This document shows positions 11,770 to 11,905 of a DNA stretch of 64,000 bases, piece by piece. The stretch lies in NCBI RefSeq assembly GCF_056746865.1, contig NZ_CM163382.1; one strand, given 5' to 3'. The notes beneath the pieces are model-generated. The model was not told the DNA's origin. It saw nothing but the letters and a program-made list of their open reading frames with translations, and did not search any database. Within the stretch, counting starts at the first letter, position 1. The number at the start of each line of letters is the position of its first letter. The translations under genes and the position numbers were made by a program.

Positions 11770-11905
11770 TCGCCTCCTTACTTCAACGCTTACACATCAG
11801 TCACGCTGGTTTGAGATAAAAAATACCAGGTGTCTGATGAGTAAGCGTCTATTCCCTATAAATAATTTATGTCGTTAATCGTCCAGTCGCTCCCCCTCTG
11901 TATGG

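Follow-up and report, generated by a model that had tools for sequence, protein, structure and literature searches.

A conserved interrupted hairpin between convergent yieH and espY genes of an Escherichia coli island

Introduction

What does a long inverted repeat do between two genes that converge on it, and why is the same repeat found again at a second junction of the same kind? The question is raised by a 64,000-nucleotide stretch of DNA (NCBI RefSeq assembly GCF_056746865.1, contig NZ_CM163382.1), which is referred to here as the window. In this window, the core gene yieH faces espY4, annotated as an effector gene of the type III secretion system (T3SS), and a remnant of yieH faces an espY5-like paralog, and a hairpin lies at each of the two junctions. 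A first-pass annotation, made from the letters of the window without database searches, proposed that the repeat could be a bidirectional terminator or RNA stability element, or a recombination site that mediated the duplication of the module. The structure and position of the hairpin, its confinement to one island and the constraint on its stem are established by the analyses described below. As its function, we favour a selected RNA stem-loop at the 3' ends of the convergent transcripts, an explanation to which we give about an even chance of being right.

Results

Geometry and stability of the hairpin

The two 14-mers noticed in the first-pass annotation, CGCTTACACATCAG (11787-11800) and CTGATGAGTAAGCG (11834-11847), were both found at the convergent junction of yieH and the 783-amino-acid (aa) gene and again past the yieH remnant. 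The pattern of both arms gave exactly two matches in the window, versus 0 in 100 shuffles. The genomic context was also as described, with yieH on the + strand, the 783-aa gene on the - strand and the remnant in front of copy 2. One further base pair at each 14-mer extends the arms to 11786 and 11848, giving ACGCTTACACATCAG and CTGATGAGTAAGCGT. The proposed start at 11799 was therefore about 12 nucleotides (nt) too far to the right. The loop had been taken to be about 25 nt, but the arms are 33 nt apart in copy 1 and 32 nt apart in copy 2, and the interior is also paired (CAC/GTG and CTGGT/ACCAG), which leaves a loop of 14 nt. The whole element is thus an interrupted hairpin, 63 nt long, with about 22 bp, one bulge and a single conserved mismatch, A.A on one strand and U.U on the other. 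The two copies are as follows.

11786..11848, no strand: hairpin copy 1, 63 nt; arms 11786-11800 and 11834-11848; mismatch of 11794 with 11840
11802-11810 and 11825-11832: inner stem of copy 1; bulged G at 11805; loop 11811-11824
16934..16995, no strand: hairpin copy 2, 62 nt; arms 16934-16948 and 16981-16995, the same as in copy 1

Copy 2 differs from copy 1 in the hinge (CGACA / AATTT) and in the loop, and its interior is weaker. A folding-energy calculation, which had been suggested as a check, agreed with a stable structure. The RNA of copy 1 folded at -31.7 kcal/mol on the + strand and at -32.0 kcal/mol on the - strand (z -6.4), that of copy 2 at -21.4 and -25.5 kcal/mol, respectively (z -4.2 and -4.7), and none of 200 shuffles reached these values. 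For single-stranded DNA, the values were -18.4 (z -7.5) and -12.3 kcal/mol. Copy 1 was the fourth strongest local structure across the window in a GC-corrected scan; further strong outliers were seen at about 30050-30800, 37020-37290 and 46360-46440, some of which exceed the hairpin. A cmscan search of 9000-24000 against Rfam (E <= 1) found nothing at either copy. Sub-threshold matches to the REP-derived naRNA4 family were obtained beside phoU (19898-19959) and in the gap between pstB and pstA (21504-21580); these are ordinary REP-type palindromes with no relation to the hairpin.

Conservation of the stem

Between copy 1 and copy 2, the arms are identical at 30 of 30 positions, versus 61% identity for the remaining intergenic region (Fisher p = 3e-6). 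The arms were likewise identical (30/30) in a divergent lineage (locus L034), where the rest of the region was 77% identical (p = 0.001), and in a rare haplotype described below (locus L009), where the rest was 71-75% identical (p <= 6e-4). In locus L007, of the same lineage as L034, the hairpin is about 94% identical to that of the window, with flanks of 69% and 77% and an espY4 of 63-71% identity. The EspY4 and EspY5-like proteins are only 32% identical, and their DNA can be aligned just in patches, at 66-70%. Identical arms beside genes and spacers so far diverged indicate that the stem is under purifying selection, as judged from these sequence comparisons.

For the variation within the element, a metagenome scan anchored on its inner part, which left the outer arms free, was combined with the other loci, and about 70 instances with 14 distinct variants were collected. 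The right arm was unchanged in all of them. The left arm showed rare changes of four kinds (G3>A in O157, G3>C, A1>G and A9>G). No change was seen in the apical CTGGT/ACCA stem, while the loop and the 4-5-nt hinge varied. The maintenance of two helical segments around a free loop fits a hairpin better than two protein half-sites. Copy 2 has perfect arms even though its yieH is dead, and therefore the constraint is not tied to the coding of yieH. Nor is the hairpin itself coding, because there is a 1-nt indel between the loops of the two copies. A small open reading frame (ORF) was also considered and ruled out; a Shine-Dalgarno-like GGAGG precedes an ATG on the - strand in some copy-2 variants only.

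The similarity of the copies would need no selection if the hairpin were a functionless relic palindrome, kept alike by recent gene conversion or by self-correction of the palindrome. The 86% patch retained by the pseudogene remnant of yieH beside copy 2 suggests some exchange between the repeats, and the genes of the island are often pseudogenes and poorly expressed. However, copy 1 and copy 2 retain their own types of hinge and loop in every sampled strain, and therefore recent gene conversion cannot explain the identical arms; no recent conversion tract runs over the hairpin. The arms are also kept in L009 and in the lineage of L007 and L034, despite the divergence of the flanks on both sides. 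We consider the relic a doubtful explanation.

Distribution of the element

A 91-nt region was used as the blastn query against 5426 complete E. coli genomes. The element was present in 1108 of them, at 2198 places, with at most two copies per genome, all of them between yieH and phoU and none on a plasmid. The first-pass annotation had asked whether K-12 carries the same element downstream of yieH. It does not; the homology to the window ends at the yieH stop codon, an unrelated hairpin follows instead, and the locus of K-12 contains cbrB, cbrC, yieK, yieL and the bgl operon. In a cryptic-clade E. coli, in Salmonella and in Citrobacter, all without the island, yieH and phoU converge directly, and the hairpins in the interval are short and either canonical or REP-like. 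The element is absent from K-12 and from these island-free relatives, and is therefore specific to the haplotypes that bear espY genes and not a general feature of yieH. The idea that it is the ancestral terminator of yieH was rejected on the same comparisons, with the short canonical or REP-like hairpins of the relatives and the unrelated hairpin of K-12 and E. albertii.

Plasmid and phage collections yielded no genuine match, the one "plasmid" match being a 4.9-Mb chromosome record. Among 100,044 species representatives, with one genome each, no genuine copy was found outside E. coli. Three matches in this species scan were discounted, two on E. coli contaminant contigs in a Collinsella metagenome-assembled genome and one at an unrelated perfect palindrome in Bacteroides. 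The two contigs of the "Collinsella sp." assembly (JAIJJM010000244.1 and JAIJJM010000384.1) are 93-99% identical to the island and are evidently E. coli contamination. Within the window there was no further copy, even with 3 mismatches allowed, and none at the phoU end of the island.

Locus L009 (positions 1-14328; Logan ERR3329175) is a rare third haplotype of the yieH-phoU interval with a single module, and it was found in 0 of the 5426 complete genomes searched. Its order is bgl operon, yieL, yieK, a 775-aa EspY5-like gene, the hairpin and yieH, with no cbrBC. The 775-aa protein is 51% identical in aa sequence to the EspY5-like protein of the window. Its hairpin has an interior of the copy-1 type and a right flank of the copy-2 type.

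Duplication of the module and a possible role of the hairpin DNA

The repeated unit consists, in order, of a yieH fragment, the last ~43 nt of yieH, the hairpin, an espY gene and a block upstream of espY (15205-15233 vs 19665-19693, 93%). Its left junction is located inside yieH (11419/16808), at a distance of about 370 nt from the hairpin; on the right side, the homology between the modules runs about 18 nt beyond the right arm and then on into the espY genes. The homology thus neither begins nor ends at the hairpin. With the left junction within yieH and homology on the right of the hairpin, the hairpin therefore travelled with the duplicated unit as cargo and is not its junction, and the suggestion that a recombination site at the hairpin lay behind the duplication was not borne out. 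The second copy exists because the whole module (the 3' part of yieH, hairpin, espY and espY upstream block) was duplicated.

A role of the DNA itself, as a hairpin or cruciform or as inverted protein sites that serve recombination, the exchange of espY alleles or regulator binding, would account for the conserved primary sequence of the arms, with the mismatch included, and the single-stranded DNA folds well, as shown above. In L009, the copy-1 type gives way to the copy-2 type precisely at the hairpin's right edge, where identity with the window falls from 97% to less than 50%, and the adjoining espY genes are mosaic and hypervariable. Conversely, the duplication junction lies away from the hairpin, no recombinase, integrase or mobility gene is present in the island according to the annotation and the published description (PMC2646131), and the phoU end of the island carries no copy. 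The element occurs no more than twice in a genome, and plasmids, phages and other species yielded no genuine copy. The apical mini-stem, which two half-sites would not need, is conserved as well, and the mosaic breakpoints in loci L002 and L008 are located away from the hairpin. A DNA-level element is thus unlikely.

Terminator features and strand preference

Intrinsic terminators carry a U-rich tract of about 7-9 nt directly 3' of the stem. The stem-loop that such a terminator needs is present here, with -21 to -32 kcal/mol, at 16 nt past the yieH stop codon and 57-62 nt past the espY stop codons. An efficient factor-independent terminator active in both directions would fit a stable hairpin between convergent genes, and the + strand tail is indeed U-rich, with 4-5 U, in copy 2 (CUUUUCGU or CUUUUUGU) and in L009 (CUUUUUCGU). 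However, the + strand tail of copy 1 is CUAUUCCCUAU, and on the - (espY) strand none of the variants has a U-tract (tails UGAAGUAAGG and UGACGUUGGG). There is no A-tract 5' of the hairpin, as would be needed for termination in both directions; the flank, CCTCCTTACTTCA or CCTCCCAACGTCA, is not A-rich. The 14-nt loop and the 63-nt length are atypical of intrinsic terminators, and a consensus terminator scan did not call the hairpin. A score after d'Aubenton Carafa et al. 1990 was negative on both strands (-7 to -36), versus +18 and +3.5 for the phoU terminators of the cryptic clade and Salmonella, respectively. A bidirectional terminator is accordingly quite unlikely. In this respect, the first proposal is divided: a stable and conserved RNA hairpin at this position is supported, and bidirectional termination is not.

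The two strands were compared for their folding in the variants. On the - strand, all seven interior pairs are kept in 14 of the 14 variants by way of C-G to U.G changes, the consensus energy is -25.8 (-) versus -21.4 (+) kcal/mol, and the - strand folds as well as or better than the + strand in 11 of the 14. The + strand, on the other hand, has a pyrimidine-rich tail and is C-rich and G-poor over the 60-150 nt that follow, with a C/G ratio of 1.5-2.0 versus 0.7-0.9 on the - strand.

Finally, the hairpin is highly improbable as the terminator of a small RNA (sRNA) derived from the 3' untranslated region of yieH, with an upstream single-stranded CCUCC as an anti-Shine-Dalgarno seed: TAATCGCCTCC is the same in both copies directly 5' of the hairpin, and a + strand hairpin with a pyrimidine-rich tail resembles an sRNA 3' module, but copy 1 has no U-tail suited to Hfq, the CCUCC block varies in several lineages (TCGTCTCC, CGCCCCC, TTGCTCC), neither a promoter nor a processing site was identified, Rfam gave no match, and no small transcript or gene is reported here.

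The island and the neighbouring genes

The island between yieH and phoU is the "Z-locus" (Z5211-Z5214: espY4, a pentapeptide-repeat gene and espY5), which stands in place of the bgl-cbr island. Sankar et al. 2009 described it as an alternative to the bgl-yieIJ island that is present in 19% of strains, chiefly those of phylogroup D and O157, has a GC content of about 30% and lacks mobility genes (PMC2646131); the hairpin goes unmentioned in that paper. The composition of the window is consistent with about 30% GC. In the RefSeq annotation of an identical strain, the order is yieH, the convergent espY4, the pentapeptide-repeat gene, a second "type III effector"/hypothetical gene and phoU. The features of the window around the two copies are listed here.

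11104..11769, + strand: yieH (6-phosphogluconate phosphatase), core gene; stop codon 16 nt ahead of copy 1
11770..11785, + strand: spacer past the yieH stop codon, TCGCCTCCTTACTTCA
11849..11905, - strand: espY4 stop codon to hairpin, 57 nt
11906..14257, - strand: espY4 ("T3SS effector EspY4"; Z5211/ECs4653 type), 783-aa ORF; stop codon 11906-11908
14273..15040, - strand: IS1 insertion, 768 bp; 9-bp target duplication TAAAAAAGG at 14264-14272 and 15041-15049
15397..16584, + strand: pentapeptide-repeat protein gene, the closest + strand gene upstream of copy 2
16808..16914, + strand: yieH remnant; 16808-16871 equals yieH 11419-11482 at 86%
17054..19573, - strand: espY5-like paralog, 839-aa ORF, with the 32% protein identity to EspY4 given above

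The second part of the remnant (16872-16914) corresponds to the final ~43 nt of yieH, its stop codon still in register, and about 245 nt between the two pieces are missing. The TAA stop codon and the first 8 nt of the yieH spacer are the same in copy 2 (TAATCGCCTCC at 16915-16925). Copy 2 lies after the remnant and 58 nt from the stop codon of the 839-aa paralog; the corresponding distance is 57 nt for espY4 and 62 nt for the paralog of L009. Within this stretch, just the ~18 nt beside the hairpin can still be aligned between the copies.

EspY4 has 802 aa in IS-free strains. In the window, IS1 sits about 45 nt into espY4 and cuts the gene from its start codon and promoter, so that the first codons are split off and a 783-aa ORF is left. 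IS1 is not part of the hairpin element; it explains the spacing of the modules in the window. Both espY4 and espY5 are hypervariable and mosaic within E. coli, with 63-99% nucleotide identity (the window, L002, L007, L008, L009 and L010), versus 95-98% between strains for the neighbours yieH and adeP, and several espY4 and espY5 alleles are annotated as frameshifted or with an internal stop. Upstream of the two espY genes (15200-15265 and 19660-19725), a common block of 29 nt at 93%, TGAATACTGTAAAAAAT.GCTCATT, is followed by a CCAGGG...CCCTGG hairpin, and the copy at 19705-19720 has a T-run after it. This region may serve both genes as an operator or promoter, or it may hold a + strand terminator that shields phoU.

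Discussion

The data described here favour, with roughly equal chances for and against, an element that is a selected RNA stem-loop common to convergent transcription units, where it fixes or protects the 3' ends and limits read-through into the facing gene. The units would be yieH versus espY4 at copy 1, and the pentapeptide-repeat gene with the yieH remnant versus espY5 at copy 2. A transcript of either strand is predicted to form the stable interrupted helix of about 22 bp. RNA polymerase passing beyond the stop codon would transcribe the hairpin, and the 3' ends would arise there or further downstream. A U-rich tail on the + strand may allow weak intrinsic termination; where that strand has no such tail, Rho may act on the downstream untranslated RNA, which is rich in C. 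The 3'-to-5' exonucleases would then trim the RNA back to the base of the stem, which would fix and protect the mRNA 3' end and limit antisense read-through into the facing gene. On the - strand, the hairpin would act chiefly as an exonuclease barrier. What we infer from these data is that the functional form is the RNA rather than the DNA, which of the strands is important, and how termination or trimming would come about.

Several observations weigh against this stem-loop explanation. The features of a canonical terminator are absent. The evidence on the strand conflicts: the wobble pattern favours the - strand, for which it is suggestive, while the tail and the rut-like composition point to the + strand. 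There are hardly any true compensatory changes, and the covariation term is -0.1 to -0.4 kcal/mol; a double change that produces a new pair in locus L028 is the one compensatory case, and the covariation test has low power because the sampled diversity is almost all within E. coli. The genes of the island are barely expressed in published O157 transcriptomes, and the literature yielded no Term-seq or 3'-end data and no small-gene record for this intergenic region. In addition, the primary sequence is fully conserved with the mismatch included, which exceeds the needs of a generic protective hairpin; sequence-specific recognition or a role at the DNA level could be the reason.

Such a sequence-specific element might be attached to every espY-type gene here, as the target of an RNase or RNA-binding protein, or as an anchor or crossover point for the swapping of espY alleles beside yieH. 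We hold this to be improbable. If it were true, a target of an RNase or RNA-binding protein would mean shared post-transcriptional control of otherwise hypervariable effector-like genes. A sequence-specific role would also explain the 100% conservation of the primary sequence, the mismatch included, between modules whose proteins are 32-51% identical, and the collapse of identity in L009 exactly at the right edge of the hairpin.

The hairpin marks the exact left edge of the island at the bgl/Z-locus (yieH-phoU) that is carried by O157:H7 and by strains of phylogroups D and E. It is the sole non-coding piece under clear constraint among fast-evolving and often decayed effector-like genes, and it offers a handle on the insulation between a core gene and the H-NS-silenced foreign gene that faces it. 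Our knowledge of termination or recombination is unchanged by it, and for the annotation of the locus it is a small point. The hairpin appears to be undescribed, yet of a familiar kind.

Integron attC sites are imperfect palindromes of similar size, one at the 3' end of every gene "cassette"; their ends are conserved, and their centre varies. The hairpin differs from them in that its ends have no RYYYAAC / GTTRRRY core sites (there is no GTTRRRY at the right end) and in that the repeated unit includes a yieH fragment, which is not expected from cassette insertion. An attC site was ruled out, as no core sites were present and no integrase was annotated or detected.

REP/BIME and ERIC sequences are imperfect intergenic palindromes of tens of bases that occur in 3' untranslated regions, stabilise the upstream mRNA and can block exonucleases. 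They are dispersed multi-copy families, unlike the present element with its maximum of two copies per genome at one locus. A dispersed repeat (REP/BIME, ERIC or MITE) was ruled out by copy number and distribution, and there is no flanking direct repeat.

The hairpin between yieH and cbrB in K-12 and E. albertii (ACTCCCTTCACTTACC...GGTAAGTAAAGGGAGT) is also long and stable (-27.6 and -32.4 kcal/mol; 4445-4505 in the K-12 locus L003 and about 3675-3730 in the E. albertii locus L054). It starts a few bases past the stop codon of yieH, where the alternative island has its left edge. Its sequence is not significantly similar to the present one (alignment score 14 versus a shuffle mean of 13.9). In contrast to the present hairpin, it is located between co-directional genes, and its 3' arm holds the Shine-Dalgarno sequence of cbrB (AAAGGGAG), which suggests that termination is coupled there to the control of cbrB translation.

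With intrinsic and bidirectional terminators, the hairpin shares the place between convergent 3' ends, the folding on both strands and, in copy 2 and L009, the U-rich + strand tail. It differs from them in the lack of a - strand U-tract and of a flanking A-tract, in its large loop and in the only moderate GC content of its stem, and its score is lower than those of the true phoU terminators that island-free relatives have at this junction.

Finally, Dar and Sorek reported that Rho-dependent 3' ends in E. coli have stable stem-loops without a U-tract and with rut sites just downstream, and that these stem-loops protect against PNPase and RNase II (PMC6061677). The stem described here is unusually long (63 nt) for such a structure, its primary sequence is unusually conserved, and the region downstream on the - strand is not rut-like. 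In its stable stem-loop soon after the stop codon, in the missing U-tract and in the C-rich and G-poor + strand downstream, however, the hairpin resembles these 3' ends, and by this analogy its + strand features would match the signature of Dar and Sorek.
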